A stretch of DNA of 58,663 bases, filler included, from Dugesia japonica (Eukaryota), in the NCBI GenBank assembly GCA_001938525.1. It is 5 parts of 5 records of this genome, joined end to end, with 100 filler letters (N's around TTAATTAATTAA, not from the genome) between each part and the next. Parts side by side here need not be neighbours in the genome. Positions count along the whole stretch, not along the records: positions 19,738 to 36,282 come from MQRL01583068.1; 4 more parts are not named here. One strand, given 5' to 3'. Numbering within the stretch: position 1 is the first letter of the stretch; each line of letters starts with the position of its first letter. The notes below the pieces were generated by a model. It made no database searches and was not told the origin of the DNA. It worked only from the letters and a program-made list of their open reading frames with translations. Shown here piece by piece: positions 25-45,123 of the stretch. Position numbers and translations under genes: made by a program.

Positions 25-77
<53 letters not shown>

Positions 78-80
78 TAA
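1..80. repeat. (AAT)n microsatellite
   Basis: Direct AAT tandem repeats. Confidence 0.95.
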
Positions 81-1982
81 CTTTATCAATTACTTTTACT
101 TGTGCATATTACAAAGTATCATTCAAATTCAGATATTTAGTGTGTGATCCATTTGTGAAAAACTCTATATCATTTCTTCATATATATATTAAATTCATTA
201 GAAACACATCTTCAAATATACCATATTCAATAACAGCTGGAGTAGATGGTCGATCAAAAATACATAATTAAGTTTTTCTGGAAATCTTTTTTGAATAACT
301 TTCCATGTCCTCTCATTTCTTTTTTTATACGTGATGGGATTCATTTCTTACGTTTTTTTAATCTGTTACTTTATTATCATATTACCTATTTTATTAAGTA
401 TTTTATTTGACATACTTGATGGCAACATGTTTGCTATTTTAGGTATCATACTGGTCACTCTACATAGTAAGAAAGATACTTAGTTTACAAAATGCAATAG
501 ATTTCAATGATGGTAGTAATATTTCATTGTTAATTAGTACATTTTGAGCTGTTTTCATACCAAATGAGCCAATCCGTTTAAGAATAGGAAGCGCAAATTG
601 ACCCATTCTTTGCAACCAACTAGATCTATACTATTTTACTATAAAGTAAGATAATTCTCTATCTGCTTGACTAGTACTATGCAATGATACAATATCAAGA
701 TTCATTATTATTTTTTCTAAACTGTAACATTAAATGTGTTTTTAAGTCTTTAGCAAAATTAATTAATTTTCGACTGCTAGGTAAATCTTCAATATCTAAT
801 TCATTTTCCAAATCAAAACTAATATTTTGAGACTACTACAACACTGTTATTTAAAAATAATTATCATTGTAAAGAACTGATTGAAACTTATTACCAAATC
901 AACTCACTTTCTATTGGCTAAAAATATTAAATAATAGTTATTTCCTTATGTCCAATATCAACACGTATATTTCTGTATTGCTTATATATGATGAAGAAAT
1001 AGGTAAATACATTGGACGATCAACAATTATTTGAAATATTTTATCATCCTCATGTTGTTCTATTCATACTGCTTGCAATGAAAAAAATTAACATCACCAA
1101 CAACAATAGGTTCAACAATAATACAATAGATGAACATTTCATAATAACACTTTAATATTTTAGGTTTCCTGATACTTTCATCCTGAATACGTATTTGAGT
1201 ATATTGTTAGTCTTTAAATCATAATGATTTTGTTTAGATTAAATATAATTTAAGACTTTTAGTACTACTTGAAATAATTCATCTTGCTTTAATTACAAAG
1301 TTATAAATAATGTTAAAAGGTTTTTTTAATATAATCATTTAGTGGTTTTAAATAATTTACTTGAATTGACTGATTTGAATAGGAATCACCGAGAAAAAAG
1401 TATTATGTGATATGTAATATCTAGTGTCCATATGTTTTGCTTGTGTTTTTATCTATCAACACTCTTTTATCATCATTATTTGTGAGAGCTAATTTTGAAC
1501 TCATAAACTAAAAAGCTGATGATTTATAGTCCTTATTCTATATTGATTAACTAAAACTCCCTTTTTTCATTGTAGCAATAAAAATAGGGCTAGTGTGTTA
1601 GGTCTATATCTTTCAACACTATTCCCTTAACTTTCATGCTAACTTTTTTTGGAGAACATTATTTTTATTGTCTATTTTTATGGTTCTTCTAAAACTTTTC
1701 TTTGAAATGTAAGTAATCAAAGATTGGGCTGAATTACAAATCCTGGAGTTAATTCTTTTCTTTAAATTTTCTACACCTTTCCATACCGATTATTATTTAA
1801 TAGCTTGTGATACTTATTCTCCAATTTTATTATACTGAGTGTTCTTAGTTCTGTGCTCATTTATATGTATTTCTTAAATATGTTAACCGGACTAAACTTA
1901 AGACCTCTATGTAAATTTGCCACTTGCATACCTAATTGTAAGAACATCTGCAACAGCTTCCAGTGAACTACATAATTCGCCT
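80..1982 (-). mobile_element. Highly decayed Polinton/adintovirus copy D (pPolB 3' part, penton, pX-like, MCP 5' part)
   Basis: The reverse complement aligns by eye with 28640-29525 (penton IVGDV, pX LPILKRIGSFGMKTAQ, MCP CIFDRPS and YLNLNDTL) and with pPolB (NYVVHWKLLQMFLQLG, KLLNNNRYGKGVENLKKR, DDKRV..KTYGH). Confidence 0.85.
1421..1982 (-). pseudogene. polB: Protein-primed PolB C-terminal remnant with internal deletion
   Basis: Translates to HWKLLQMFLQLG..HRGLKFS, KLLNNNRYGKGVEN, MKVKGIVLK and DDKRVLIDKNTSKTYGH, with stops and frameshifts. Confidence 0.8.
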
Positions 1983-2508
1983 AAAATTATCTAAAACTTT
2001 AATTTTATGTGTAAAATACAATAAGTTTAGACATTTCAAATAACAAGTGAAAATTTAAGCTTTTCTACAAAAAGATGATTATTATAGGTACTACTTTATA
2101 AAATTTAAACTTTTACAATTACATAGAGGAAAAATATAAACAATTTATGGTTTCACATTCAGTAAATAATAAATAAATAAGAATTCTTTTTTATTTTTCA
2201 ATTAGAATATTATAATAAATAAGAATAATTTTAAAATTAAATTCATTGAATATTATTAGTTACTCAAATAGTTATTGATTTGATTATAATTTTACTTTGA
2301 AAAAAAATTTCTATGAAGATTTTTCTAATTAATTTAAAATATATTTAAATGAATAAATCAATTGACTTTAAAGACTAATAATAGGTTTAATTGGACAAAG
2401 TCTTAATCATTGAAAAAATGTATGTTTCAAGTAGGTAATTATTTGATTAATAAACACATTAGAAATATATTTCATTGAAATAAGAAAAAGCTTCAATCCA
2501 AGTAAAAT

Positions 2509-6820: not shown

Positions 6821-7289
6821 CATATTTAACTTGTTAATAAGTTTAACATTAACTTATTTAGTTTCTGCACGTTGGATAATATTTTATAATTTGTTATTTA
6901 GTTAACTTGTTTAGTTTTTGCACATTAGGAAATATATATTTAATTAATAAAGAATAATAAATGATTTCCCGTATTTGTCATTATATACAACATGGTCAAT
7001 ATAAATATTATATAACTTTTTGTATAAAATTATTCATATAATGTTTTTTGGAATATAAAAATAACACGAAAATTGTTTTTTTATAAATGTAACAAATTGT
7101 ATTTTTTTACAAAAATAAAACATATTTTTTGTAATGTAAATATTTTTAATATTAAATTTGTTAGTATTAAATAATTTGACAAAGATTTTTGTATGAAGAA
7201 TCGCATTTAATTTATTATTTGTTGGATTTAATTTATTTATCTAAGATAAACCCTAGATGAAAAAGTATTATTATAGCCTATAATATATG

Positions 7290-7400
7290 TTTACATTTTA
7301 ATGAGTTAATTATTTTGATCGGGTAAACTTACGAATACCTTTAATTTATAGATATTCGTAAGTTTACCCGATGAAAAGAATTAACTCGTTAAAATGTAAA
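7290..7400. repeat. Hairpin / collapsed MITE with ~48-bp inverted arms
   Basis: 7290-7337 is nearly the reverse complement of 7353-7400 (ATCGGGTAAACTTACGAATA versus TATTCGTAAGTTTACCCGAT). Confidence 0.85.
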
Positions 7401-9400: not shown

Positions 9401-9439
9401 GATCTCAATAAATGGAATATTTTCAATCTGCAAGGTAAA

Positions 9440-15608: not shown

Positions 15609-15740
15609 ATTTAGATTATTATTGTGAGTATTTTTTGTTCTTATTTTATTCTTATTCTCAAATATTGATATGCATTAAAATGCTATTTTAAAATATTATT
15701 TATTATCTTATTTATATGGTTGATTTATATTTTTATGTAG

Positions 15741-16284
15741 AGTGAATACAACTGTTAAACCTGGTTCATCGCCAATATACTCAGATATGTCTTTATGTAA
15801 CCAAAAAAATAACGAATCTAATGATAACATTTTCTCAGATGATTTGTATTGTGATATAAATGAACAAATTAATTCTCAAAAGCAAAACGATATCGATTTG
15901 AATCATACAGAAATTCCAAAATCTACACAACCTGTAAACATATTTAATGTTACAATGATGAACGATGATGTATATTTTTGTCCAAACGAGCTTGTTGATC
16001 CTGAAGTTGTCAATATATCTGGAAATACTATATCTGATGATATTTATTTAATACCAAATGAAATAGAAAGAAGTGTACAAAATTCACCTAATGAAAATGT
16101 TAATAATGTTGATGATGTTTATTATAATCCGAATGATGAAATGGATTTTCCAGTGCTAAGTAAATTCAAAGAAGACTTGTTAATGAAATGGAATGAAATC
16201 GATGTTGAAAGAGCTTTTCGTGTTGCTCATAACGATGAAATTCTTGCAAGAGAGATTTTAATCGAATTTGTTGCCCCAAAATGA
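15741..16284 (+). CDS. cbl: Terminal exon of a Cbl-family E3 ligase (Tyr-motif tail and UBA domain)
   Basis: Acceptor TTTATGTAG ends at 15740. The C-terminus DVERAFRVAHNDEILAREILIEFV matches the Cbl UBA pattern, and DDxY motifs are repeated upstream. AATAAA at ~16580. Confidence 0.7.
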
Positions 16285-19745: not shown

Positions 19746-20447
19746 CTAGAAATATCTAAGACGACTTTTTAATAATTCTTCATTCTTCAAACTTTCTTTA
19801 AACATGATATCATTGAATGCATCAATATTAGCGAATTTGTTGTTACCGATTAAATGTTGAAATCTTACAATTTCAGATAAATCTGATAAAATAATTTCTG
19901 GTTTTTTCGGTAGATCAGATTCGTCGAAAAATTTCCTAAACTTCACCAGACATCTGTCCTCATGATATATAATCGACCTTAATGAATACCGATTACCACA
20001 AAGATAACAAACAATACTTTGACGAATCATATTGTTATTACTGATATTTATATGGGTATCAATTGGAAAATCTGTTTTATCACCAGCTCCTTTGAATTTA
20101 TTAATAATAACACACTCTTTCTCATGATCTGAAAATCTTTTACAAAAGAACCATTTATTACATGCTGAACAATTGAAATTGGTAAATGTTTCTTGGTTGT
20201 CGATTTGAGTAGTTGATTCGTCGTCAAATTTGAAAAAAAAACAACAGCCTTGATCGATACCGTTTGGAATTTTACTAACGTTTTCTTTAAATTGAACTTC
20301 AAGACTTTTACTTTTTTTATGTAGAATTTTGTTTCGAATTATCGAATTCTTTTTCATTAATGGATAATAAATTAATCTATTTTCATTTGTTTTCAATTCA
20401 GAATTATTGGAACTAGTATTCGGTTTGTAATCACGTAATGCCCGCAT
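19746..20447 (-). CDS. ZNF474-like C2HC zinc-finger protein
   Basis: CSACNKWF..RFSDHEKEC and IVCYLCGNRYSLRSIIYHEDRCLVKF..LPKKP..IDAFN match the ZNF474 zf-C2HC_2 repeat pattern. First ATG at 20447. Confidence 0.7.
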   Translation of the reverse strand: MRALRDYKPNTSSNNSELKTNENRLIYYPLMKKNSIIRNKILHKKSKSLEVQFKENVSKIPNGIDQGCCFFFKFDDESTTQIDNQETFTNFNCSACNKWFFCKRFSDHEKECVIINKFKGAGDKTDFPIDTHINISNNNMIRQSIVCYLCGNRYSLRSIIYHEDRCLVKFRKFFDESDLPKKPEIILSDLSEIVRFQHLIGNNKFANIDAFNDIMFKESLKNEELLKSRLRYF

Positions 20448-20691
20448 TGTTTTGTTTTGTAATTTGAAAAAAAATCTTTCAGTCAATAATAAAATTGACT
20501 TATTATATTTTGTAACTAATATATTTTGTTATTTAAATATAAAGATTTTATTATACTCTTAAAAGTTTAACAATTTTTTAAATCTTTTTTATAATAAAAA
20601 TGTGTGTATCTATGTGTGTGCTTGGTGTGCATTATTTTTTCTACCCTTTTTCTTTAATATAATGACTTATTAAACTTTGGCCCGTATTTTT

Positions 20692-21191: not shown

Positions 21192-21655
21192 TCAAGGTCA
21201 AATTTTTTCAAGGTCACTGATACAGTATACTTGATTCTGATTGGTCCGTGATCTAGTATACTCAATTATAATTGGTGGAAAATATGAAGGTCAACTTTTC
21301 AAGGTCAAACTGATACAGTATACTCTATTTTGATTGGTCGAAATATTTTCAAGGTCAAAGTGATACAGTATCTTGTGTTTTGATTGGTCAAAGTGTATCA
21401 AGGTCAAAGTGATATAGTTTCCTGCGATCTGATTGGTCGAAGTAGTTCAAGGTCAAAGTGATAAAGTATCTTGCGATCTAATTGGTCAAAGCATTTCAAG
21501 GTCAAAGTGATATAGTATCTTGCGATCTGATTGGTCGAAATGTTTCAAGGTCAAAGTGATACAGTATCCTGTGTTCTGATTTGCCCAAACGTTTCAAAGT
21601 CAAAGTTATATAGTATCGTGCGATCTGATTAGTCGAAATGTTTTAAGGTCATCTG
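21192..21655 (+). promoter_or_regulatory. 49-bp subterminal tandem array containing TCAAGGTCA and TGATTGG (CCAAT) motifs
   Basis: Exact TCAAGGTCA at 21192, 21208, 21299, 21349, 21398, 21447, 21496 and 21545, plus variants. Period is 49-50 bp. The repeat is directly seen; a regulatory role is inferred. Confidence 0.65.
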
Positions 21656-21849
21656 ATAAACTTCAACTAAAAATTCCCCGGGCATACTAAATATTTAAAT
21701 TTCTCTCGCAAAATTAATATTAATATATTTATTTATTTTTTTATTTTGTTTTAATGTATCAAAATTTTTTTTGAAATATATTTGTTTCACTACTTATGAA
21801 AATAAAAAACAATTTTAAAAAAAATATTTATTTGATAACATAATTAACA

Positions 21850-22175
21850 GTCAATATAATGAAATATCTGTTGATTTTTCTAAAACTTCCGAACCTTTAA
21901 TTATCATTATTCCTTCTTCATTCATTGGCGCATCTTCAACAGTTTGTATATCGGCTATTATTTCAACATCCGCTTGAATACTTTCTAAGTTATTCATTAT
22001 TTAAATAATAAATTAATAAAAATATCTTATCTATAACTTTAACAAATGTTTCCTTCATCTCTTCTGTCAATGAAGACAATTCTTCATTCAATTCTGCAAC
22101 ATTTTGTTGATTTTCATGAGAATAATTTATATCAATATATTCAACCATATCATCTATAACTTTATCTATATTCAT
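21850..22175 (-). pseudogene. Small acidic accessory ORF of the element, possibly spliced
   Basis: ORF MNIDKVIDDMVEYID.. followed by a second acidic segment after an AT-rich stretch ending in AG. Confidence 0.35.
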
Positions 22176-22626
22176 TGTTGATTAAAGGAAAAATGTTGAT
22201 TTTGTTTATATTGGCCACTGTTGCAACTTCATCTTCTTTGTTTAACTTGCCTTCTTATTGCAAAAATACATTCCTCGTGCTCATTGTATACTTGCATTTG
22301 AGTTGCATTGTCATTGTTTAACTTGCATTCAAGTTGCACAAGTATGACTCGTAGTTTTTTTCTTCTTGAATTGCATCAGTATTGCATGTTCTTTGTTTAA
22401 ATTTCTTTCTCGAACTTTTAATTTTTAGCCCTAATGAGGACTTATATACTCATAATCAATATTTGTGCTCCTAAAGACGACCGTTACTCGTTCACATATA
22501 TACAATTTTCTTCTTTTTTCTGAATATAAAAATTTTAAATATTATCTAAAATCAAATAATTTCATACTTTGAGATAGATTGGACTGAGAATGATTGAGTT
22601 GAATTGATCTTGATTGAGGAAAAGTA

Positions 22627-25600
22627 TTACAATGAATAATGCCCGTATGGTAAGCTTAAATCTTTCTCTGTCCATACTCGCTTATCATCCTTATTAGACA
22701 GTGCCATATTTTTATTCTTAATACTGTAGAGCTGATGATTTTTCGATGTTATTCGAAATTGCTCTACTGAGACCGTCTCATTATAATTATAACAGTCAAG
22801 GTATGACTGATAACAAATGTCAGTACCTTTTAATGTTATGCCCTTAGCTTTCATTGATTCTTTCTCATTAAGTAGGCTATAACACTTCGGTCTCAAAAAT
22901 ATCCATTCTTGATATTTCTCCTCTTTGCTCTCATCCTTGAACTTGCCAATTACTGAATTTAAACTGTTGCTGTAAAAGGAATGGCTTGTGTTGTAATTGG
23001 ACGTATCTAATAGCTGATCCTTCTTCATTGATCCGGTCAGTTTTTCCAAACTTATGTCTACTACTTCTAAGAAAAAACTATCGGTATCACCGGCTATTAT
23101 ATTTNNNNNNNNNNNNNNNNNNNNNNNNNNNNNNNNNNNNNNNNNNNNNNNNNNNNNNNNNNNNNNNNNNNNNNNNNNNNNNNNNNNNNNNNNNNNNNNN
23201 NNNNNNNNNNNNNNNNNNNNNNNNNNNNNNNNNNNNNNNNNNNNNNNNNNNNNNNNNNNNNNNNNNNNNNNNNNNNNNNNNNNNNNNNNNNNNNATCAAT
23301 TTTTGAGCTGAATTACACAATCTTAAATTCATTCTCTTCTTTAAATTCTCAACTGTTTTACCATACAGCCTATTGTTTAAATATAATTTATTTATAAGAA
23401 TTATTTATAATAATTCTTCTCCAACTCTGATTTACACTCTGATCTTAATTTAGTGTTGACATCTATATATTGTTTGAAAATAGATGCCTGGCTGAACTTA
23501 AAACCTCTATGTACCTTTGTCATTTGTACACCCAATTGCAAATAAATTTGCAGCAAACTCCAGTGTATGACATAATTTTCTTTCGGGTAATGAGTCAGCA
23601 TTAATTTTATCACCTTACTACCTGGAGGACTTTGATGTTCTGCTGCAACAGGTAAATTATTCAGTTTGTCTTGAATTTTTGCTGGTATAACCATATCTAC
23701 TTCTAATGTGTATCCATATGGTAANNNNNNNNNNNNNNNNNNNNNNNNNNNNNNNNNNNNNNNNNNNNNNNNNNNNNNNNNNNNNNNNNNNNNNNNNNNN
23801 NNNNNNNNNNNNNNNNNNNNNNNNNNNNNNNTCGATGTATAATAAATCCGTGTTTTCATTACTAACAACATGGTGTTTATTTACAAATGTTAGCCCACCT
23901 CGTATCCCCTTCAAAAAATGTATACATATCATTATCAGTCAACAATTCAATTGGTTCATTTAATGACATCAATACAGATGCCAAACTCATACCCGGGATG
24001 CCAAAGAATGTTAATGGCTCCAAATTATTGTGTGCCAATGATTTTGTCCTGAACTGTTGAAAGAAATCGGCTAACAAAAACACATCTAATTTCAAATATA
24101 GTAGCAAATAATCCAATAGATTGTTGCATTCTGTTATAGTCCACATTTCCAATGCTTTTTGATAATCCTGCTCATTAACTTCCTCCCATCTTGGTGGCAT
24201 TGTTGTTGTTTCAATCAGAACTCGCAAACTGGTTGCATAATTATAAGGAAATATCCCCTTTGACATTGTTATTCTGCTATCTCTAAATTAATTTGTTGTC
24301 AAAGGTGTCTCTTTTAAGGATTTGACTGCTGCATCCAATGAAGAGTTAATAAATTGATAAGAGTCAATAAATCTGATTGTAATTTCTTTCAGATGTCCAA
24401 TGAGGCATAGGAATTTTTCTGATGTTGTTGGCATGCAGGATATGGTCCAATGAGGAAATTTATTTAATCCATACTTTAATATATGGTGAAGGTCATATCC
24501 TCTCAAATTATGGAAGACTACTGGTAATTGATAGATGATTCGTCTGCTTAAATTGCATTTATTACAGGCGGCTCCTATATACTTACCTGTAAAATGGTCA
24601 TGATCCCGGACTGGATTACTTAAAAGGTTTTTTACACAAATGACATATTGTACTATGTTTAAATTCCATTTCTTGATCCGGGTTCATAATTCGTTTCTTT
24701 TTTCCTTCTTTAATATAATATGGATATACAATATTATTACCAATTTCCTCCACATCCTTTAGAAATTCATATAAGCATTCATTTCCAATAAACTGGCTGT
24801 ATTTGACTTCATTGGTAAAATTATTTACCAACAGCAGTCCAGCTGAAACAGCTAAATGTTTTTGGAAATGCTTTTCATCGCTGGGTAATACCGATTCGAA
24901 ATCAGCATATATAACAAAGGGTGGAGTTATAGTTTTGGAGTAATCTTGAAACTCCAGATTCTTTTCTGTTGGCATCTTGTATAATGTTGTGCCAGTCTGA
25001 ATTTTCTCACAAATTGGCTCATGAGTCTTGTAAGCCGTATTATCCTTGAATCCGTTGAGATAATTCTCGCATCAGATTGCTTGAATTCGAACACCATCCT
25101 TTTTAATATCTCTGTTCATCAATCTATTCAAATTCATTACTGCAGTGTAATGAAATTTGTTGGCATCTTCCAATGACAATAAATTGATTTTTACTCCATC
25201 ACATTTAGACCGATGTATAATGTCTAAATTCGAATGCTTCATTATAACATCATCATCGTCCTCAACTGATTGAGGATTCCATGAAAAACATTAATTGATA
25301 AGCCAAGGTCTTGATTTTCAAATTTTGGTATATTTGTGAGCTTCATTGGCATGTCCCCTTCATCGAATACAAGATCAGACATATTTTGATGCTCGATTCT
25401 GATTTTTTCCAACTTTATCCTTTTTGAGAATTGCTAGGATACTATATATAAAACACATATTATCATTATTCTGTATTTAAGAACGGCTTTTTTATTTTTC
25501 AAGTTTTTTGGTGTTGGAATGTAGCCATGTCCAGATAATCTACTGATATCTGATACCTTTGTGATTTTAAAATTTATTTCCAATATGCGGCTCAGTATCC

Positions 25601-26316
25601 AACTAGATCCGAGCTCGCTTCGTATAGCAATCTTCCATTTAACTGTTTTATTCCATCTTCGAAAAAAGAATTACTCAATGGACTAGCTCGATTTGATAAT
25701 CTACAAGTTTTTGTTACGTCGTCTTTTTCGAATTCAACATTTATTCCGAATTAGATCTTGACATTTTTTAATTCTTCAATAATTTTGAATAACTGCTCAA
25801 TCATGGAGTTTGGTAAAACGATTTCTCTCGTATTCCATCTTGAAACATTCATTTTTAATATCTGGTGACATTTATATAAGTCACTTCCTATTATCACATC
25901 TTCATTGAGGGAGCCACCAGCTTGTGCTTCTTCTTCATCTATAAAACTTTGCATGGCAATATCTTCTTCATCTATTTCATCTATGATTTGAAAATCGGAC
26001 CAATCATCTTCAATTATCTGAGATTCCACCTTTATTTCTCCATCTGAGATAAAATCTTCTTTTCTCTTCTTCGATGGTGGACCATTTATCTCTTTTTCTT
26101 ATATCATCTTCAATAATTGTTTTTTATTTGTTGTAAACTGCCCTGCATGCAACCTATAAAAGTCTAAATATTCACCTATTCCTATAGACATGCATGATGG
26201 ACATATGTAATACTTTTCCTCATAANNNGATTGTGCATAGTATCTCTCCATAGTACTATGACAGTCGCCTTTATGAGTACAATTTGCACAATAATGTTTG
26301 TACATTGTACAACAAT
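22627..26316 (-). pseudogene. polB: Protein-primed DNA polymerase B (EndoVII-domain type), frameshifted
   Basis: Ordered motifs: GSSW, YIPTP..KKAV, CFIYSILA, YADFES, CHLC..DHDHFTGKYIGAACNKCNL, FHNLRGYD, FIDSYQF, KGIFPY, GIRGG, GKFKDE, LRPKCYS, KAKGI, DDKR and PYGHY. Confidence 0.95.
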
Positions 26317-26859
26317 CTGGAAAAAATAAGTTTAAAACATTTTATAAAATTATTAAAATTTATTAAATTATTAAAACATAAAATAAGTTATAAAATGAAA
26401 AACTAACTTTTATCATAAATAGGAGCCGCAACAGGAGAAGAAACAACAGAAGCATCATAAATTTACTTTAATTAAACTCTTTCTTTTGATACATCTTCCA
26501 CCTTGCTTTGAATTATTATAATTCTAAAATAAAAATTAATAATCATTAAATACTAAAAGTAAATTTACATTATCAATCATTAAACTTGACGAATTCATAT
26601 TTCGTTTATCGTTTATATTGTTCATAACCTGAAAGTGTAAAATAAATAAAAATAATAATGAAAATAGTTTACCTTTTCTTCGTTCAACAATTTTCTCAAT
26701 ATGCTTTGATTGTTCATAATCTAAAAATATATATAAAATAGATATAAAAAATAACAAACTTACGTATCAAATTTGTCGCTTTTAAAAATAGTTTTTTGAA
26801 AATTGTGAAAATTTTTCAAAATTAACTGTTTTTATAATGTCAAAATAATTATTCTTTCA

Positions 26860-27040
26860 CCATTGTATGCATGTATTTTAATTTTTCTATCTCCTTTGTA
26901 TGAGTGTATCATATATTTTCTATTCCTTCGATGTGTGTATAATATATTTTCTATTCCTTCGATGTGTGTATAATATATTTTCTATCCCCATTAAACTATT
27001 TGTGTATGTATCATAACTTTTTCTATCCCCTTTGCAAGTG
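26860..27040. repeat. ~30-bp tandem repeats upstream of the pPolB leader exons
   Basis: TGTGTATAATATATTTTCTATTCCTTCGA-like units repeated about 5 times. Confidence 0.7.
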
Positions 27041-27352
27041 TTTATTCAAAATTTTAAAATACCACAACGTAGTATATCAAGTTGTAACAAGAAATCATTT
27101 TTTTATGATAAAATAATTTTAAAGTACTGCAACGTAGTATAATTTTGCATTTACAAATTTATTAGTCATGAAAATAACAAAGACATGTTTTTATTATAAC
27201 AAAGGTCAATTAACTGCTTTATATTTTTATGATTTTAAAAAATTTAACTATTTTATAATTTAAATAAAAATATATCAAATATTTTCATATAATACATTTA
27301 TTTACATACAACATATACATTGTTGATTATTTTTCACATAAAATGTTGATTT

Positions 27353-27736
27353 TCAGATACAATGTTGACTTTTAAGCCACAATAGACAATGTTGACTACA
27401 GGTTGTTGTAAAAGGATTTTGAAATCTAATTTTGTTATATTTAATTGGCTTTGATATTTTTGAGAGATGTGAGACCAATATATGTAGATAATAAAATCCA
27501 AGTGGATCAAAAACTGAAATAATTTCAGGCTTATGATAAACTGCTATCCAATTTTCTCCACAAAGATTTGATGTTTCAGTATTGTAGATTAAGGCTTTAT
27601 TAACTGGAAAGTATGGTAGTTTGTCTAATGTATATACTCCCAACCACGACGATCCCAACAATTTTGATCCAATTTGATTAATCTGAAAAGAACTAATAAA
27701 GTAAAATATTAAAATTAAATGAAAAACTTATTTCAT
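27353..27736 (-). pseudogene. Adenain-like cysteine protease with a 39-nt intron (27693-27731)
   Basis: Spliced product MNSFQINQIGSKLLGSSWLGVY..NT..GENWIAVY..FDPLG..QNPFTTTCSQHC. The catalytic His position reads Asn and the donor reads ATAAGT. Confidence 0.85.
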
Positions 27737-27768
27737 ACTTTTGATTATTTGATTTTATTAGATATTGT

Positions 27769-28065
27769 TTACCGTAGTACTGTTCTATTAGCATTTATTT
27801 GGGTTTCGCTTTCAAATACTCCATTTATTATAACATACGCTTCCGTCTCCAAAGCTTTAGCAAACTTTATATCCAATCTTAAATTTCCTTGTTGAGGCAA
27901 TTGACTCTGATTAATATCGAAGTCTGGAGCAAGTACAAATGTAAAAAACGGATATTTGCTTTTTAATTTCTCAAGTTTTATTCCACAATTCATATTCTTA
28001 TCCAAATATCCCATATTGTACTGTATCACCATTCTGTATTCTACATTTCCAGTATATAATAAGTC
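27769..28065 (-). pseudogene. Major capsid protein (hexon-like), C-terminal fragment
   Basis: FFTFVLAPD, GNLRLDIKFAKAL and VFESETQINANRTV are typical of the F54H12.2-like MCP C-terminus. Confidence 0.85.
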
Positions 28066-28069
28066 GAAA

Positions 28070-28895
28070 ATGAAATACATGACTGCAAAAAAATATATTA
28101 AATGAAATAACTGTAACAATTAATAATAAGGAAAAAGCGATTAGTGCGATCAAAATACAAATATTGAAATATTTGAATAGAATCTCACAAGAATTTATTG
28201 TGATTTTCCATATATTGTCATATTTGAAGATGCAAATATCGCGCATTCATTTGGATTAGAATTTAAATCTAACAAATTAAAAAAAACTTTTGGAGCTATC
28301 TATACAAACTTTGCAAATGATGACACAATACAAAAAGTAAAAATTAAAGTAGATTATACAAAGGTGAATTATCATAATTTTCAGTTTAAAAAGGATACAT
28401 ACATATCAGAATTAGAATATTAAGTAAATATTTGTCAAAAAATTGTACTCAAATACTTAAGAAATGTCTTACAAATGTAGATATTTTGAATTCGAGCTAC
28501 AAGATGATGTCAAAAATGTTGAATTTTATTATGTCTAAAAAAGAACATTTGGATTAGACAAACAACAATATTCTCCTACAGTTATGAAGGGAGGCAAATT
28601 CAAAGCTATTGCTAAATAAAATGAATAAAATTACATCAGCAAATATTCATCTATAGTAATCTTGTTGAAACTATAATTGTAGGTGATGTTAGTGTACATT
28701 TGTTGAAAACAATATGGATAGAAAAGCATGAAACTGATGAAGTAGTACAAATGATAGTTAAGAATCCAATGTATTTAACTATGGTAACATCATGTATAAA
28801 CAATATAAAAATTAATATACGCGATGATAACGAAAAATTAATGAAGGTTATAAAATTCAAAAACTCATTTAACTTTACATTTTAAAAAACTAAGT
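28070..28895 (+). pseudogene. Minor capsid protein (penton)
   Basis: YSNLVETIIVGDVSVHLLKTI..NPMYLTM..INNIKINIRDD and a terminal LTLHFKK. The 5' boundary is approximate. Confidence 0.8.
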
Positions 28896-28896
28896 A

Positions 28897-29320
28897 ATGA
28901 ATCCTGATATTTTTTCAATGTATAGTACTAGTCAAACAGGTAGAAAACTACCTTACTTTCTTGGAAAACAGTGTTGATCTGGTTGGTTGTGAAAAATAGG
29001 GAAATTTGTATTACCTATTCTTAGACGTATTGGTTCATTTGGTATGAAAACAGCTCAGGATGTACTAACTAAATTGGAGAAATACTACCAACATTAAAAT
29101 CTAATGCATTCGCTGAACTTGGAAATTTTATGTCATCATTACATAGAGGAGTAACCAGTATGATTCCAAAAATAGTAAAAAAGTAAAAATAGCATAGTAA
29201 ATAACGAATATGCTATCAAATCAAGTCAAAACACCACAAATTCATAGAAAGCGTACAAAATCTCGCGCATCACGTATAAACAAACTAATGAGAGAGCATA
29301 GAACAATATTTGAAAAATGA
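28897..29320 (+). pseudogene. pX/core-like virion protein with putative adenain cleavage motifs
   Basis: MNPDIFSMYSTSQTG.KLPYFLGKQC*SGWL..IGKFVLPILRRIG.., with a basic C-terminus. Its TGA overlaps the MCP ATG (ATGA at 29317). Confidence 0.65.
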
Positions 29321-30322
29321 TTTGCAGTAAAACTGAATTATGTATTTTTGATCGACCATCTCCTCAAGTTGTAATTAAAAGTGGTAGGTTTGAAGATGTC
29401 TTTCCTATAAATTCAATTTCTGAATCACAAAGCGACATAGAGTTTTTTATAAATGGATCTCAAACAGAATATTTGGATTTGAATGATACTTTATTGTATA
29501 TTAAAGTAAAGGTGATTGATAAGACAATTTGGCCGACACTCATTATGTTGTTCCAAGTAACTATATGCTGCATACGCTTTTTAAGGATGTAATTCTTTCG
29601 TTTATTAATTTCAAAATTGAAGGTGGGAATGGATCTTATCTTCTCAAAGCATTAATTGAAACTATAATAAATTATATAGGTGATAGTAAAAATATCTGTC
29701 TTACATCAATGAAATATGGAAGCAGATATAAAAGGTCTACTAAAACATCAAAAAGATTTTCCCTATGTGGTGCATTGCAACTCGATTTCATGGATCAACC
29801 AAAATACCTTATTCCTGGTGTTAATGTTGATATTAGGTTGAAACAATTGTCTTCAAAGATAAGTTTAAAGTCTGCAGCTAATGAACCAAGATATGTATTA
29901 CTAGATACAAAATTAATGGTTAGACGTGTATGTGTTGAACTCTCAGTACTAGCTGCTTATCAAATGGGACTATGAGACTGTTTCCTTGACGAAAAACACT
30001 AATTATTGAGAAATATACACTGAAGATTTTACAAACGATAATTTTACCACTACATATATGTAATCTATAGTAAGAAATATGGGATATTTGGATAAGAATG
30101 TGAATTGTGGAGTAACACTTCAAGATTTTAAGGATAATTATACCTTCTTTTCATTTGTTCTTGCTCCAGATTTTGAAATAAATCAGTCAATTAACTCAAC
30201 AAAAAAATTTGAGATTGAATATCAAATTTGCCAAAGCTTTAACAACATCAAAATATGTTATAATTTATAGACTATTTGAAAATGAAATTCAGGTTAAAGC
30301 CAACGAAACAGCATTAGTGTAA
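29317..30322 (+). pseudogene. Major capsid protein (double jelly roll, F54H12.2-like), internally deleted
   Basis: CSKTELCIFDRPSPQ..IEFFING..YLDLNDTLLY, LHTLFKDV, DFMDQPKYLIPGVNVDIRL and FVLAPD. Confidence 0.9.
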
Positions 30323-30350
30323 ACAATATGTTGGATAATTGGTACATGTT

Positions 30351-30635
30351 ATGAAGTAAGTGTTATTAAAGTAATGATTTTTATTTTCATAGTACTATTC
30401 AGATTGATAGGATTGCACCAAAGTGGCTTGGATCAGCATGGTTAGGTGTTTATGCGTTAGATAAACTTCCAAATTATATTACAGTAAACAATGCCTTAAT
30501 TGTCAATAATCATACATCAAATCTAGGTGGATAACATTAAATAGCTGTTAACAATAAATCAGATATCAAAATCCATTTACAACTATATGTGGTCAACACT
30601 GTTAGTTATGGACGAAAAAACAACATTGTACTTGA
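30351..30635 (+). pseudogene. Adenain-like protease with a 37-nt GT-AG intron (30356-30392)
   Basis: ATG AA|GTAAGT..TTTTCATAG|T ACT ATT CAG gives MNTIQIDRI..WLGVYALDKLP..GG*H*IAV..QNPFTTICGQHC. Confidence 0.85.
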
Positions 30636-31397
30636 CAGATTTATATGTACTTGTTGTATAAAATAAATGCTTTTTATTGAAATTAAATCTTTCTTATTTA
30701 TTAAAATTATGAATAAAAATAATAAAATAACAACATTTATTTACAAACTATTTGTTAGTAATATGCTAATAATTCATGTTTTTTTATTATTTTGACACGT
30801 TTTATTATCAAAAAAATAAAATTAATTTAAAATACCACAACGTAATATATCTGTACTTTGAAAAATTAAATTAAAATACCTCAACGTAATATGTCTGCAA
30901 TATTTAAATATATTTTGACATACATATTCGAATTTGATTGGTTAGATTTGAAAACCTTGGTAAAAGTTATTATTCTTCATTATAATTTCAAATTTTCTTT
31001 ACAAAACCAGTGAACAAATAAAAGAACAGTAGAAAATAACAACATTTATTTATAAAATATTTGTAATTATTATACCATTAATGCATGTTTTTTATTATTA
31101 TTTTTTTAAGTTAAATTTTTTTAATATTTTACTTTAAAAACTACTATTATGCTATTTTATTATGAAGAAGAAATGTTCGGTTTGTTTTATGAAAAGTTCT
31201 ATGCTTTTATTATTTTGCTGAGAAAAGTTCCTAGCTAATATGTTTTTTATAGAAAAAGTTCAATGCGTTTTATATTTTATAAAGAAAAATGTTATTAAAA
31301 GTTTTATTAAAATTATTATGTTATTGTTAAAATTATTATTTTATCATTATGTTATTAATTTTTAATTAAAACTATTAAAATCGCATCATTATTTTAG

Positions 31398-33621
31398 GAA
31401 AGTATCAATTATACAAAAAACATTGCGCTAGTGCGAGTCACAACGGTGACTGTCATAGTATCATGGAAAGATACTATAGCCAACGGTTTTATGAAAGAAA
31501 CTATTTTATATAGCATAATAGTAAGGTATTAAGTTTAGGGGACTACTTAGATTTTTATAGGATACATAAAAACCACTTGTCATGTTTTAGTACTAGTAAA
31601 AAATATATATTAAAATCAATATTAGATAGAAAGTTGGATAGTATGTTTTATGATGCACCAGTAAATAAGACAATTAAGTTTGAAGAAACAACAATTAAGG
31701 ATGAGCCTATTGAAATAATCGTAATTGAAGATGACGTTGAGTAAATCATCCATTTGAACCTGGAAAAAGGAGAAACATCAAATATTGTACAAGAAGAAGA
31801 AGCAATAAATATTTAATTTTACAGCAAAATAAAAAAACAATTAAATTCTTTCACAGCTATCAGATCAAAAATTCCTCATTGGACACTGCTGCTAAATACT
31901 TAAAAGCAACACCTTTGACTACAAAAGAATTTAAGAGTCAGATTAGTACAAAATCAATAGGGATATTTCCTTACAATTTTGTAACGAGCGCACAGGTTCT
32001 AGAAGATACAAAACAAATGCCGCCAAAATAGGAGGAAATTAATAGGAAAAAATATGAGAAAAAATAATCGATGTGGGAAATATTTAGTTACACAACATCT
32101 TTGAATTATATGATGTTATATTTAAAGTTAGATGTATATTTGTTAGCAAATTTTCTCCAGCAATTCCGTCCAAAGTCTTTATGGCACAACAATTTTGAAC
32201 CGTTGAATTCTTTCGGTATACCAGAAATATCATGGGTATCTGCGTTGATATCATTATAAAAACATATTGAATTGCTGCAAGATAACGATATTTATACATT
32301 TTTTGAAGGAGATATAAAAGGAGAATTAACTTTTGTAAACAAGCATCATATTACCACTAGTGAAAATGTTGATTGGTTGTACATAGATATTAATAATCTA
32401 TATGGTTGGACACTGAGTCAAAAGTTGTCCTATACAAATTTTGAGTGAGTCTATGATGGATTGAAAAGAGTTTTGGAAGTGTGTAAAAATGCAGACCTAG
32501 ACTCATTACCATATGGATACACACTCGAGGTGGACATGGTAATTCCAGCAGAAATACATGATTATTTGAATAATTTACCAGTTGCTACAGAACATAGAAG
32601 CACTCCAAGTTCAAAAGTAAAGAAATTAATGTTAACCCACTACTTCAAGATCAATTACGTAGTGCACTAGAAATTGCTGCAAATGTATTTAAGTTTAGAA
32701 GTTCAAGTAACAGAGGTTTATAGAGGTGTTAAATTCCGCCAAGCTTCAATATTTGAGAATTATATCAACACCAACACAATTTTCAGATCAAATTGTGTTA
32801 CAGAATTAGATAAAAACTATTATAAACTGTTAAACAATAATTTATATGAAAGGTCAGTGAAGAATCTTAAGAACAGGAAAAATCTGCGCTTAAGTAATTC
32901 AGCAAAGAAGTTGATTACATTCGCATCAAAAGCCAGATTTAAAAAAACCACAAAAATTGATGATGATTTGATAGCTGTTCTTCTCAAAAAGGATATCGTT
33001 TGTTTAGATCGTCCGAGCTACATAGGACAAACAGTACTTGGCCTCTTAAAATTGAGAATGTACAAACTTCAGTATATTGAGTTGGACAAGTACAGGAAGG
33101 AATATAATTGCAAAATTAATATTGTAGCCGGCAAGACAGATAGTTTTTTTCTAGAAATAAAAAATATACGTTTAGAAACAATAACAGCGAGTATAGTGAG
33201 AGATCAGTTACTTGATACTTTGAATTATGATACAGATCATGCTCTTTATAATAGCATCTCGAATTTGGAAACATGAAAATTCAAAGATGAGAATAAAGGG
33301 AAGAACTATCAAAAATGGGTATTTCTGAGGCCGAAATGTTATAGCCTACTCAGTGATAAGAACAGTATAAGAGCAAATGGCATAACATTGAAGAATACAG
33401 AAATTTGTCATCAGTCTTACCTTGACTGTTATAATGAGAACAAATCGGTCTCGGGGAAACAATTTAGGATAACCACCAAAAATCATCAATTGTATAGCAT
33501 TAAGTCAAAACAAATAGCACTGACAAACTCAGATAATAAGCGTGTATGGGTTAATAAAAACAACAGTGTACCATATGGTCACTATACCATAAAATTGTTT
33601 TTTTCCATCAATTCGATCTAG
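31398..33621 (+). pseudogene. polB: pPolB copy B: N-terminal Cys/His and acidic part joined by deletion to the polymerase half
   Basis: GDCHSIMERYY, then GIFPY, YLKLDVYLLA, DINNLYG, YYKLLNN, KTDSFF, KFKDE, LRPKCYS, DNKR and PYGHY. Confidence 0.92.
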
Positions 33622-34326
33622 CCTCATCAAGAACAAAACCGCAAACAAAGGTATTTATTTTGGTTTTTTAAAAATATTAGTTTAATTATTTTTTATTTAG
33701 ATTATGACAAGAAAAGCACAAAAACAACTGTGAACGTATAAATGGTCATCTTTAGGATAAAAAATTGTACATTGAATTGTGAATAATGTTATTATTATTT
33801 CTTATTATTTATTAGGTTTTTTAATGAACATGATGTCAGCATGAAAAAACAAGACGCGAGCATGCGTTGTACATGACATCTGCTTTTTACAAATAATAGA
33901 ATTTAACAATAAATTTAATTTTTAATTCAATTTATATTTTTATTTCTTTCTTACAAATTGAATATTAAAACAAATATAACATTTGGAATTTGATTATAAA
34001 ATTTCCATAATTCGTTATTACAAACTTTGAAGTAATTATTTTCAATTAGCTTTGAAACTTTTCAAGAAAAAGAAATTTCAATTAAACTAAAAAATACTTT
34101 TATAAAATTTGTTTAACAAAATTTAAAATTATTTAAATTTCTATTAATAAAATAATTCGTTAAATAGTTATGATGATCTATAATATTTCTTAAATTTAAT
34201 AAATGAATTCTACTAGAAATTATTCATTTTTTAAAAAAAATATTAATTTAAATTATTATANNNNNNNNNNNNNNNNNNNNNNNNNNNNNNNNNNNNNNNN
34301 NNNNNNNNNNNNNNNNNNNNNNNNNN

Positions 34327-36070
34327 ATGGTTTTACGAGAAACAGTATTTTTATGCCATAACTTTATGTCATTAGAATAAAGTTATTACAAAAAAATTTA
34401 ATAGGACCCACAGTTACCATCTGACAACTGTTGCTATGAATAAGAAAAAAGTATTAAAATTCATTCTAGATAGAGAATTATATGTACGAAATAAGATAAT
34501 TAAGTTGGAAGAACCGGAAGGTATTACTATCAAGGATGAACTGATAGAAGTTATTCTACTTGAAGATGATGATGAAGAAGAAGAATAAATCAAGACGAAA
34601 CTATAAGAATAAACTATCAATCTTGCACCAGAAGGAGAAGCAACCAATAATGAACAGAATTTTACAACAGAAGATTAAAGCAGTTTCGAAATCATTTATG
34701 AATTAGATGAAGAAAAGATTATATAATTCAGTAATTCGTTGATGCAGAAGAAGATATTCAATTTGGCTGTGCATTAAATCTTGTTATTGCCGATAAAAAT
34801 GTAAAAGGATTTATATCGTTATTACCTAATTATAAAAATAAATTTATCAAGTTGGAACAAAATCAAATAATACTAAGAGAAAGCTTGGTTTTCTAAAAGT
34901 TTAAGATAATAAAAGAGTTGAAAAAAGTGAAAATTCAATTTGGAATAACTGTCGAGTTCATAAGGGACGAGGAGATAAAAACTAGCAGAATATCAAAAAG
35001 AGCTATTTCATTAAATAACAGTTCTTTCAAAGACGGAGTAAAGCAATTGAATAAAAAATTGTTAAAAAGACTGAGCTCGGTTTCAGCTAGATACTAAGCA
35101 GAATTTTGAAAGTAAATTTCAAAATCACCAAAGTGAAATTTATTTGCAGACTGTCAAAGCAAAGTTATATATCGACACAAAACAATCTCTCAAAGAAAAA
35201 AGCGATTGTCAATATTAGGAACCATGAAAATAAATGCTTTATTTAGAGCATTCTAGCTATTATAAAAAAAGATCAAGTTAATAAGAAATCCAGAAATAAA
35301 ACATCCGTATATGAAAAATATATGTCTGAGTTAGAATTGGAAAAATCAAACATTCCAATAAAGCTAGATATTATTCTCAAATTTGAAAAAAAAATCCAGG
35401 ATTTTTTTTTCAAATTTGCGAATAATATCTAGCTTTATTGGAATTTTTGATTTTTCAAATTCTAACTCAATGCCTTTTCATGGAATTCAAATGACATGAA
35501 AAATGGCGATGAGGAAGTTTTCAAACATTTTAATTTAGATATAATCAAAAGGTCTAATGTAGTTGATGGTAAAAAAATATATCTGTTGTTGCTAAAAGAT
35601 TGCAATAAATACCATTACACAGGCGTAATGAACTTTGATAGGTTGGAATTGCCAACAAAGGAGCTAACATGAGAATTCAATCAATATGTTGTTAATATTG
35701 TTTAAATGGATCCAGAAAGGAAATAGCTTTAGAGNAGCATCAGATAATTTGCTAGAAAATTCAAACCGAAACAACTTTATATACCACGCTGACCAAAAGC
35801 AATTTAGAGTTAAAGCATTTCTCTAAAGCTCTAACACCACAAATCCTCATATATGCTTATTTTGAATCAGTTTTGCCGTCGAATGAACATATGCCAGTTT
35901 CAGAAGGAATACTGTTAGTAAATAATTTTTCTAACAAAAGAACATATAAAGACCTCATTGAAAATGACTGCAAATATGATTTTCTAAACAAAATTAATGA
36001 AATCAACCACAATATAGTGTCTTCATGTTACACACTACATGGAAATAACATAATTGCAATTATTAGTTAA
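34327..36070 (+). pseudogene. polB: pPolB copy C, N-terminal half only
   Basis: Collinear with 24700-26230 of copy A: FYEKQYFLC, acidic tract, KKAIVNIRNHENKCFI, YHYTGVMNFDR and YAYFESVLPS. Confidence 0.85.
35328..35468. repeat. Fold-back inverted duplication (~70-bp arms) inside pPolB
   Basis: GAGTTAGAATT..AAAATCC A GGATTTT..AATTCTAACTC. Confidence 0.9.
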
Positions 36071-36282
36071 ATTCAAAGTTTCACAAGTCTCCATAAATTG
36101 CTTATTGAATATTACAAGTCTTTTATTATAATGAAAAATGATAAAACACAATTCACAATATTCAAAAAAGTAATCTGAGAAATCTTAATAAAATATTTTT
36201 CAAAAATATTGATTTTTTAAATTCCAAAATACTGTTGGGGTCCCACCTGAGTTGAGCGACAAAAAAGGTGGCTGGGGAAAAA

Positions 36283-38458: not shown

Positions 38459-38856
38459 ATGAATAAACCTGAAACACCAAATCCTATCAAAATCGAAAAT
38501 GAAACAGAAATTAATAAAGACGAAATTTCTGAAGATAATCAGTCAATTGATAAAAATAAAATGCAAGACATTAAAAATAAGGACTTATATTTTCCTAGAA
38601 GATATATTGTTTTAGCTTTATGTTGGAGTGGTTTATTTATAATACATGCTATGAGAGTGAATATTGGAATAACTGTGGTGACAATTTTGGATATTGAAGC
38701 TCATTCTAAAGTTGGTAGTAAAGAAGCTGTACAAAGTTTACCTAATGTTACGTGGAACTCAAAAATGATTGGGTTCCTTCACAGTGTATTTTATATAGGA
38801 TTTATTTTAACTCAAATTCCAGGAGGATGCATATCTAGGAAATCATTTGCAACTAA
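38459..38856 (+). CDS. SLC17-family (VGLUT/sialin-like) MFS transporter, exon 1
   Basis: PRRYIV..MRVNIGITVV and WNSKMIGFLHSVFYIGFILTQIPGG. Donor GTAAGT at 38857. Confidence 0.9.
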
Positions 38857-38903
38857 GTAAGTGGATATTTAATTAAAATGTTATAATTATCTAATTTATT
38901 CAG

Positions 38904-40625: not shown

Positions 40626-40806
40626 ATTCATTTAAAATAAAAGCTATGATAAAAATTTGTATTTTTGGTTTTTTTAAGATTAATTCGATATTTCGACCTT
40701 GTCTTCGTCAGGAAAGTCAATTCCTGACCAAGACAATGTCGAAATATCGAATTAATCTAAAAAACCAAAAAACGAATTTTGATCTAAGCTTTTATTTTAA
40801 ATGAAT
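40626..40806. repeat. Palindrome (~88-bp arms) holding two inverted minimal hammerhead motifs; Penelope-like terminus
   Basis: The arms are near-perfect reverse complements around the loop at ~40715-40720. Confidence 0.85.
40682..40714 (-). ncRNA. Minimal type I hammerhead ribozyme motif
   Basis: The minus strand reads TTC-CTGACGA-A-GAC-AAG-GTC-GAAA-T-ATC-GAA. It has an intact CUGANGA/GAAA core, stem II, a palindromic stem III, an AUC cleavage triplet and stem I TTC/GAA. Confidence 0.65.
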
Positions 40807-42446: not shown

Positions 42447-45123
42447 AACATCTTAAGCAGAAAGAAAGGTGCATTATCCTCGTCTTGTTTAGGCAATGTT
42501 ATCAGAACCAGATATTTACTGAACTGGTCTAATATTCGAAAAATGTATTTTTCCGTACACTAGTTTACCGCATTGGTTCACATATATCTGTGAATATGAC
42601 TTAAAACAAATTGGTAGCTTCTAATCTTTTTGTCTTCTCTTTAGTTATTGTCTTCAATACTTTAGTATTCTGACAGATTTCACAGCTACGAACTATCTTC
42701 TGTATTTGGTTCCACAAATTCTTTGTAACGTATTTCTTTCTCATATAGACATACACCTTTTCAACTACTACATGATATAGTAATTTGTGTTTTTCTTCTA
42801 TTGTCTCACTTATATGTCATTCTGAATATTTATTTTGTTGATTAAATCATAAATGGTTAATTGCTCATCTTCTGGCTTTTCGATTGTGTTCAGTATCTGG
42901 TTTAAATCTTCCCTTTCTTGATATCTGCGTGTGACATTTGGCATTGTATGCATCCCTTACATCTTGGTCTAGATAACATATCTGCATTACCATGTTGAAT
43001 TCATTTTCTATATTCCAATATTATGTTTAGACTACTGAGATAATTAATCCATGTCTGAAATGGTGACGTAATTGGTTTCTTTGTCGTCATCATGAAAGTT
43101 AGAGCTTTATGATTTGTTCTAAGAGTAAATCTTCTAATGTGCAAGTAATGCTTGAAATGAATGCAGAAATAATAAGCAGCCAATAACTATTGACTTTTCA
43201 TTGACTGTAATCTATGAGCCACAACTCTTTCTATTCCTTCTTTATCTTTCTGTGACAGTACAGCTCCAGTTGTATCAAAATTGGCAGCTGTATCTAATAC
43301 AAATCTTTTATTTATATCTGGATAACACAATATTGACGCAGTCATTAGAGCTTTCTTTAGAAAGTATCGTTTATTTTGTCTCGTTTTTAATTGCATAATT
43401 CAAATAGTAATTACAAATTTCTAAGAAACCTCTGAACTTCTTCACACAGTTAGTTTTACCAAATGTTCTTTTTGTTTCTAATTTAGCTGTATCAGTACTA
43501 ACATCATCCCTGTTAATTATGTATCGATGAAATTTGATTTCGCTTAGAAAAAACTGACACTTTTCCGAATTAATTCTTAAACCAGCTATCATTATTTCCG
43601 TCAATATTCTTTCTATTACTTCATAGTGTTGAATTTTATTGTTCGTAAATATCAGAATGACATCAAGATAAACGATGGCTCCACTTTTGTCACAATCTCC
43701 TGAAATGTACCTTGCACCGCTGCAATGTCAAATGGCATTCTATTAAAACAATATTATCCATGTTTCGTTGTAAACGCCGTTTTTTCTTGAGAATATTCTT
43801 CGAACTTTACCTGATAGTATGGGTTTCCAAAATCTATTGAACTGAAATATTTTACTCCATCTAACGTGTCCAGCCTTTTATCTACGTTAGCCATCGGAAA
43901 GGTTTCATTACTGCATTCAATTGTCCAAAATCCAAACATATTCTTATGTCCTTCTTTTCCTTTTTTCAAACAAAAGTCAGTGGGATATTCCACGGAGAGT
44001 TGCATTTCCAGATTATATTATTCTCAAAAGGTCTTTNGATAGCTTCTTCAATTTAAGCCTCTAAGTTCATTGCTTGTTTGTACGGTTTCATATTGATTGG
44101 TTCACCACTTATAATTATTTTGTGTTTTATCAGATGTGTACATACTACACCTTATTTATCTACCATGAAAACATCTTTATTTTCAATTATATTCAATAAC
44201 CGTTGATCGTCTTTAATCTACAGAATATTTAAAGCTCAATATTTTAACTTCAATCACTCACCAAATGATGTCCAATGTCCACCATTTTCACATCGTTTAT
44301 ACCATACTTCTTGACATAACCTTTTAATATGGCCAACCTTTCCACAACTAAAGCATTTTGTTGGTTTTTTATCTGGACAAACTTGACTTATATATCGTGT
44401 TTTATAACAAGTCCAACACTCTACCACTTTTATTGTCGGCAATTTATTTTAGTATGACAGATATTATGACAACCAACATTAGATATTTCGTTTTTTCTTT
44501 CTTTGATCCACTGTTTTACAGGTAATTTCGACTTGTAATTCTGGCTTTGATTTCTGCTCTTTTCTATTCGATCTACTAATGTCATTGTTTCTTCAATCTC
44601 TTCTATATTCTAACGTTTCCGCAAAGTAACCTCTTCTTCAACTTTTTTGTTATCTGAACAATAAACTAGTATCTTTGCTACCATTTTATCCTCTGTAGAA
44701 TATTTATTTGAGAAAAATCTTTTAAATTCTTAAAATAAACTTGAATCTCATTATTTTCACGCCTGTAGTTAATCAAATTTTGAAAATCTTTTTTACATTT
44801 TTTCTTACTCAAATGCCAAACGTAAACGAGCCTGAAACCCTTCAAAGTTAATCAATGTCTTCACATACTCTTCCAACAAATCGTCATCTAGCAAATAAGA
44901 GACTGATTTCTCCTGTTATTTCATTTGGGTGAAGTTTTTATCCTCATAATACAATTCACAACGCTTTCTGAAGTTTTCAATGTCATCTCCTCTACAGAAC
45001 ACATTTGGTAATAACCTATCAGTAATAGAATCGGTAATTACCGCTGCCACCATGTTAGGTACATCTTATGAAGATAATTGATTTTCGAAATCACAACAAT
45101 TAATTTCAAACATATTTGTATTT
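42447..45123 (-). mobile_element. Ty3/Gypsy LTR retrotransposon (LTR end, PBS, gag with zinc knuckles, RT, RNase H, integrase), decayed; lies antisense downstream of SLC17 exon 2
   Basis: LTR end ..AACA followed by PBS TGGTGGCAGCGGT. CFSCGKVGHIKRLC, YFSSIDF, KTAFTT, YLDVIL, FVLDTAA, FTLRTNHKAL and ILDQFSKY. Confidence 0.92.
45040..45052 (-). other. Primer-binding site (tRNA-Leu-like)
   Basis: TGGTGGCAGCGGT immediately follows the LTR-terminal CA. Confidence 0.65.

Follow-up and report, generated by a model that had tools for sequence, protein, structure and literature searches.

We analysed a stretch of 58,663 nucleotides from the Dugesia japonica assembly GCA_001938525.1 (hereafter the window, meaning the whole stretch), with the region at 22627-33621 as the subject. 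This region (22.6-33.6 kb) consists of two decayed, truncated copies of a Polinton/adintovirus, named B and D, which lie head-to-head, and in both of them capsid and protease genes adjoin a protein-primed DNA polymerase B (pPolB) of the EndoVII/GIRGG type. Judged from its sequence, the element belongs to the BA class, i.e., a Beta-class virion module joined to an Alpha-class, EndoVII-bearing polymerase. This pairing is an old, already described combination and not a novel hybrid peculiar to this animal. The best explanation, to which we give a probability of about 0.85, is that B and D are truncated, decayed copies of an endogenous BA-class Polinton/adintovirus family whose two modules were paired long ago and have been inherited together since. 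The original prediction, a hybrid Polinton forming a stable chimeric lineage in this host, held for the linkage and the motif classes; its motifs had been pooled across copies, and its core-protein motif (QxGSG) is broken.

Gene content of the two copies

We resolved the region by tblastn against intact relatives from public assemblies. Copy B lies on the minus strand. Its pPolB (22612..26341) is near full length, with pieces covering residues 1-1226 of the 1242-aa relative P0043, and is interrupted by stops and frameshifts as well as by two N gaps. It begins with a Zn-finger-like N terminus (26099-26341) and carries an EndoVII-like insertion (DHDHFTG...CxxCNL; 24550..24610) in the exonuclease region. 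The motifs YADFE (24909), DHDHFTG (24605), CxxCNL (24566), KGIFPY (24260), and GIRGG (23908) each occur once in the region under study, all on the minus strand. A spacer of about 1 kb (26342..27352), which is repeated elsewhere in host contigs and contains a 31-bp tandem repeat (26845-26986), separates the polymerase from an adenain-type maturation protease (27353..27727, minus; profile from 25 relatives, E 2e-38; 49% identity to the protease of L028). A profile search detected no PW-like gene in this spacer. The major capsid protein (MCP) of copy B retains only C-terminal residues ~318-405 (27772..28038, minus; 77% identity to the relative P0001, with GNLRL at 27888), being truncated where the two copies meet.

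Copy D runs on the plus strand. A penton (minor capsid) remnant (28181..28885; penton profile E 3e-27; IVGD at 28676) is followed by a core protein of the "Cupiennin" class, a Beta virion hallmark (28897..29300; profile E 2.6e-20 and family alignment), which is broken by stops and for which homology is demonstrated over 28897-29091. Next comes the MCP (29317..30319; residues 1-223 and 292-406, 67-73% identity to P0001), with an internal deletion and frameshifts, bearing KxELxxF..P..Q at 29329 and YLDL at 29470. An adenain remnant (30391..30638; profile match) precedes the pPolB (31409..33640; 54% identity to P0043), in which an N-terminal Zn piece is joined to residues 619-1229. This polymerase has six in-frame stops and lacks roughly residues 60-618, i.e., the YADFE and EndoVII region. 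A separate pPolB N-terminal piece (residues ~100-525 by homology) lies downstream of copy D on the same strand (34726..36043).

A further copy, A, occupies 82..1986 on the minus strand and comprises a pPolB C-terminal piece, a penton remnant, the core gene, and MCP residues 2-69. At 1250-1986, its polymerase C terminus and the penton remnant share a strand, the former lying directly upstream. B and D have a different order, and the copy A arrangement may represent a deletion junction, a tandem unit, or another gene order.

The original prediction had placed the linkage in copies A, B, and D. It holds in B and D separately, since the copy D polymerase is sister to that of copy B in the pPolB tree, whereas copy A keeps only pPolB residues ~913-1225. 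All four capsid motifs were present as predicted, once each, and are split between copies, with GNLRL in B and the rest in D. The polymerase motif set (YADFE, DHDHxTG..CxxCNL, KGIFPY, and GIRGG) was likewise present, in copy B only; because all five diagnostic polymerase motifs are confined to that copy, the earlier set must have been pooled across copies. No intact QxGSG remains in the window: a stop falls inside the motif in copy D, the motif is degenerate in copy A, and intact forms occur in relatives only.

When the region was shuffled 300 times, YADFE, DHDHxTG, and KxELxxF..P..Q never recurred, and KGIFPY and GIRGG recurred in one shuffle each. GNLRL, IVGD, and YLDL appeared in 8, 22, and 117 shuffles, respectively, so the short capsid motifs by themselves are weak evidence, and YLDL and IVGD are uninformative alone. 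Gene identities are firmly settled by homology. The MCP pieces are 67-77% identical to the intact 406-aa P0001, and the pPolB pieces are 30-78% identical to P0043. The polymerase is identified as a protein-primed PolB by PF03175, by homology over residues 1-1229, and by the fold of a relative (predicted local distance difference test [pLDDT] score of 84), whose best fold matches are bidnavirus-like and adintovirus polymerases. In Pfam, the piece at 24291-24683 matches DNA_pol_B_2 (E 4.6e-6) and, below the curated cut-off, Endonuclease_7 (PF02945; E 0.002); P0043 passes the cut-offs for both, as intact relatives do for PF02945. Hexon and penton are identified by homology, by the penton profile, and by the predicted double-jelly-roll fold of the 71%-identical P0001 (pLDDT 85), and adenain by the protease profile matches in both B and D.

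Name-based resources returned little. Pfam names none of the MCP, penton, core, and protease, and no OTU domain was matched on P0043 in Pfam, although no OTU-specific search of the pPolB N-terminal region was made. PDB sequence searches gave no match for the pPolB profile and no significant match for the core protein (best E 0.54). Among the best 50 BFVD matches, the top MCP match was a Cotesia bracovirus protein (24%), and no Terrapene or Mayetiola hexon was listed. The ESM Atlas gave "hypothetical protein" clusters only, cluster look-ups of relatives gave almost no named members, the phage collection gave no match, and no relatives emerged from IMG/VR, whether scanned with the MCP piece of the window or with the MCP alignment. 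The "F54H12.2" label given earlier to the virion module was not returned by any search, nor does it occur in any of 15 papers listed in a literature search.

Class of the virion and polymerase modules

The class comparison was made by eye against the hallmark proteins in File 9 of Buck et al. 2024 (PMC11071296); here and below, the cited papers are represented by portions of their text and supplementary files. In that file, the Beta polymerase (isolate salamanderBB) carries KGYFPHFFN and GGRT, and the Alpha polymerase (catsalivaAA) carries YADFE, an EndoVII-like H-C-H..CNL, KGVFPY, and GIRGG. The catsalivaAA motif set matches copy B. As for the capsid, ELxLF..PPT and GNLRL are found in the Beta hexon (ribbonwormBB); the window MCP shares ELxLF..P..(T/Q) and GNLRL with it, whereas the AA hexon has neither. 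The core family resembles the Cupiennin hallmark in the family alignment, a resemblance without structural support since the core protein found no significant PDB match. Thus, a Beta hexon and a Cupiennin-class core are both recognizable in the window, with a GasderminX-like gene in relatives only, and the expectation that the two modules fall into different reference classes was borne out by these hallmarks.

The polymerase has the AA hallmark motifs, and its fold matches point the same way. Starrett et al. 2021 (PMC8502044) give closeness to bidnavirus and adenovirus polymerases as the signature of Alpha PolB, and the modelled fold of the relative best matches bidnavirus-like and adintovirus polymerases. 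The Beta-class motifs KGxFPHxFN, GGRT, and NSxWGK are absent from the whole window, in agreement with the original prediction for KGxFPHxFN, and from the 70 related loci described below. We use the terms Alpha and Beta because the sources do not settle the group 1/2 numbering: Starrett et al. bin Alpha with group 2, Jeong et al. (10.1101/2023.08.22.554363) put both nematode polymerases in Group 2, and the consulted portions of PMC11161782, PMC8097293, PMC4028283, PMC3671162, and PMC4061559 contain no definition of the two groups.

The Beta-capsid/Alpha-polymerase pairing was published by Starrett et al. 2021 (text and legend of Fig. S2), and AA, BB, AB, and BA pairings were reported by Buck et al. 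2024 (bioRxiv 2024.03.25.586562 / PMC11071296). The 67 adintovirus rows of the Buck naming key comprise 25 BB, 13 AA, 12 BA, 7 AG, 6 BI, 2 AB, 1 BG, and 1 BBA, so that BA is about as common there as AA (12 versus 13). Examples of BA include a Parasteatoda contig (Starrett et al.) and Clytia, Lineus, Calanus, Nymphon, and Anelosimus isolates (Buck et al.). What had been seen as a notable hybrid is therefore a member of a published class.

Like other BA adintoviruses, the window family joins a Beta virion module to an Alpha-class polymerase, and its intact relatives share the integrase-penton-Cupiennin-hexon-adenain order and the GasderminX-like gene. It differs in forming a subclade with a short MCP (~407 aa), in having, in this host, the pPolB follow the protease on the same strand, and in that the window copies are decayed and lack integrase, ATPase, and termini. 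With BB adintoviruses and vertebrate-type Mavericks (Terrapene reference), it shares the class of capsid, penton, core, and protease, the MCPs of its clade being 28% identical to mainstream members; the BB polymerase, however, is of the KGxFPHxFN/GGRT type and gives no significant match to the window-type pPolB (best E 0.24, C-terminal 516 aa of L101). With AA adintoviruses (Mayetiola reference), it shares the polymerase class (YADFE, EndoVII-like insertion, and GIRGG), whereas these have another hexon type and a PLA2X gene, neither of which was seen in the window or recognized in the listed long related loci. The nematode pPolB2 Polintons of Jeong et al. 2023, invoked earlier as a precedent, are alike in that a polymerase was replaced within a Polinton and a nuclease domain was inserted in pPolB. 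That swap, however, is a different event, being between two polymerases (pPolB1 and pPolB2) which Jeong et al. assign to a single group, and it is recent (other proteins are ~80-90% identical), whereas the window-type modules have codiverged to ~50-60%.

Linkage, co-descent, and rival histories

Scanning Joint Genome Institute (JGI) metagenomes with the MCP alignment yielded 70 related MCP loci. Seven of these extend into a pPolB, in every case one that matches the window-type profile; the four with a full pPolB (L013, L017, L031, and L070) carry the EndoVII, KGxFPY, and xIRGG motifs. Since the window-type profile is blind to the Beta polymerase (that of L101 went unmatched), the 70 loci and the window were searched separately for Beta motifs and with a Beta query, and no Beta pPolB was found in them. 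Seven contig sizes (11.5-22.1 kb) are moreover common to related MCP and pPolB clusters, a circumstantial linkage. Thus, the BA pairing is present in intact relatives outside the window, contrary to the view that the lineage is peculiar to this host.

We then compared an MCP tree (77 rows, quick IQ-TREE search) with a pPolB tree (44 rows, FastTree), both midpoint-rooted only, so that they do not decide between a swap and an ancestral pairing. The window MCP fragment falls in a 20-row clade with 99% support, whose members, wherever the partner is known, all have a window-type polymerase. Both window polymerases (B and D) fall in a 24-row clade with 100% support and the same partners, and L070 is outside the core clade in both trees. 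Besides, pairwise MCP and pPolB identities are correlated (rho 0.91 for nine elements, 3 of 5000 permutations; rho 0.65 for the seven core elements, 131 of 5000). MCP and pPolB have therefore descended together, and the agreement of the trees indicates that the pairing is old.

Several points weigh against our reading. The class assignment rests on by-eye motif comparison and fold hits, and some "AG" isolate names poorly fit the letter order of the Buck main text. A polymerase is missing from 63 of the 70 loci, the majority of which are of insufficient length to contain it. In the correlation, three of the nine pairs are linked solely through equal contig size, the long branch of the window can inflate that correlation, and both trees come from fast methods. 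Furthermore, the window copies alone miss the full definition of such an element, no integrase, ATPase, or terminal repeat having been found in them.

One alternative agrees with the reading of an ancient, co-inherited pairing on class and differs on history: there was no swap, the Beta capsid and Alpha polymerase being ancestral to this capsid clade and the "hybrid" an artefact of reference choice. The clade MCPs branch outside the mainstream Beta MCPs, with which they share just 28% identity, the pairing is already present in the distant L070, and the Buck list contains BA about as often as AA. L096, however, represents a second, independent BA pairing, since its MCP nests among mainstream Beta MCPs while its Alpha pPolB falls outside the window pPolB clade; real swaps thus do occur, and Barth et al. 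(10.64898/2026.10.13.758929) describe module reassortment as frequent. We regard an ancestral pairing as possible, if on balance doubtful.

Far less probable is a swap of the polymerase that happened recently and in this host alone. The polymerase orientation, co-directional after the protease in the window copies and convergent in all seven related loci, is what re-insertion could produce, yet it is also explained by the inversion of a segment in an element that already held both modules. MCP and pPolB share their nearest outside relatives at similar distances, and the 7/7 linkage together with the correlated identities largely refutes such a swap, which we reject. We equally reject, as very improbable, the idea that unrelated fragments came together by chance among decayed repeats or through a scaffolding error. 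The window is indeed rich in fragments, with 31 N runs; no contig from the DNA runs spans the stretch, and copy A shows another order. Nevertheless, two copies ~30% diverged have the same protease-then-polymerase layout, the spacer too is a repeated sequence, D-like spacer is connected to B-like spacer (30850 to 27054) in contigs of three DNA runs, and intact relatives have the same pairing.

By analogy with the biology of the group, the intact element would have had a linear genome replicated by protein priming at terminal repeats, would have integrated through an rve integrase, and would have used an A32-type ATPase to package its DNA into capsids whose maturation depends on adenain. Replication and virion modules are presumably largely independent, with few shared contacts, which may permit reassortment; because of these few contacts, a polymerase could be exchanged and then stably inherited. 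The pairing would have been acquired long ago, before the MCPs of the lineage diverged to ~50-60% identity, both modules being co-inherited since.

The related loci gave further observations. In five control loci, all of one family (L101-L104 and L106), a Beta MCP is accompanied by a GGRT polymerase. A third type of polymerase, on long branches, is present in L097 and L099. Fourteen IMG/VR loci with an Alpha-like pPolB served as tree context only; none matched the MCP profile. Polintons of the window capsid class were found in bacterial metagenome-assembled genome records (L098-L106), probably animal host DNA binned with symbionts. A TBP-like gene occurs in intact relatives (L013:2175-2618, L031:2420-2866, L014, L040, and L070; PF00352 E 5e-18 in L031). 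Judged from open reading frame starts, penton-like genes stand in tandem in L031 (two, 5616-7684) and L097 (two or more, 3-3317).

The family in its host

DNA identity among copies A, B, and D is 65-74%, and the differences fall mainly at third codon positions. The ratio of nonsynonymous to synonymous substitution (dN/dS) was 0.06-0.32 in nine of ten copy-to-copy comparisons, the core gene giving 0.58. The copies thus diverged under purifying selection, which bears out the proposed stable lineage; they are dead remnants of separate subfamilies, which split when still functional and decayed afterwards.

Profiles of the integrase (from 18 relatives), ATPase, GasderminX-like, TBP-like, and PW-like genes found no match in the window. 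Neither an rve integrase nor an A32/FtsK ATPase was matched there, where the copies are cut at the positions these genes hold in relatives; L031 has rve (E 1e-12; Chromo below the cut-off) and Pox_A32. Because the copies are cut exactly where both genes lie in relatives, their absence from the window says little about the family. No terminal inverted repeats or target-site duplication were recognized around the truncated copies. A 49-bp tandem array (21297..21651, 7.2 copies) beyond the end of the copy B pPolB is a possible subterminal repeat, and it could lie outside the element.

In three DNA runs, summed contig depth over the element genes (21800-36200) was mostly 10^4 to 4x10^5, a sum that is not a copy number, and individually listed contig pieces had a depth of about 5-35. 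The pile-up includes the spacer and is far above neighbouring pieces, which suggests that the family is very abundant in the host. Strand-biased polyA RNA reads of run X10, a library of unstated strandedness, cover the C-terminal half of the polymerase (22281-24685; depth 22-28 versus 1.5-10). Since 1248 of the 1366 reads are only 90-95% alike (eight reach 99% or more), they come from other copies, and this suggests some transcription of the polymerase from those copies.

These data bear on a further proposal, namely, that the family is a reduced, rearranged BA element with penton, core, MCP, protease, and pPolB on one strand. Under this proposal, the element lost its own integrase and ATPase and reached a very high copy number either through an integrase supplied by a helper or by forming tandem arrays, some copies still transcribing the polymerase. 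The lack of integrase and ATPase in 58.7 kb, the polymerase-penton order of copy A, the contig depth, and the polyA reads would fit, whereas every copy is truncated where these genes would lie, and related elements occupy contigs of full-element size (13.7-16.3 kb). We therefore consider it improbable.

The rest of the window is AT-rich (mostly 20-35% GC) and holds many decayed mobile elements. Two decayed long terminal repeat (LTR) retrotransposon remnants (8526-9410 and 42451-44017) are 75% alike over 818 columns, with a weak Integrase_H2C2 match and RVT_1 (E 1.7e-7). Short near-perfect palindromes, resembling miniature inverted-repeat transposable elements, lie at 35327-35469, 7290-7400, 40626-40806, and 2509-2594, the first interrupting the separate pPolB N-terminal piece. 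An inverted repeat pair (49993-50396 and 57217-57619) is 76% alike over 407 columns. Probable host gene exons are found at 38459-38860, 19746-20528, 5987-6820, and 15724-16284; the first presumably resembles the start of an SLC17/MFS transporter and the second presumably contains C2HC-type zinc knuckles, neither with a Pfam match.

The finding opens no new question, the pairing having been published in 2021. What it contributes is an old BA lineage with many members and with capsid-polymerase co-descent, a modest data point on how often modules reassort, and it means that a two-group classification by polymerase alone or by capsid alone is unsafe. It would become more important if the host family truly lacks its own integrase and packaging motor.

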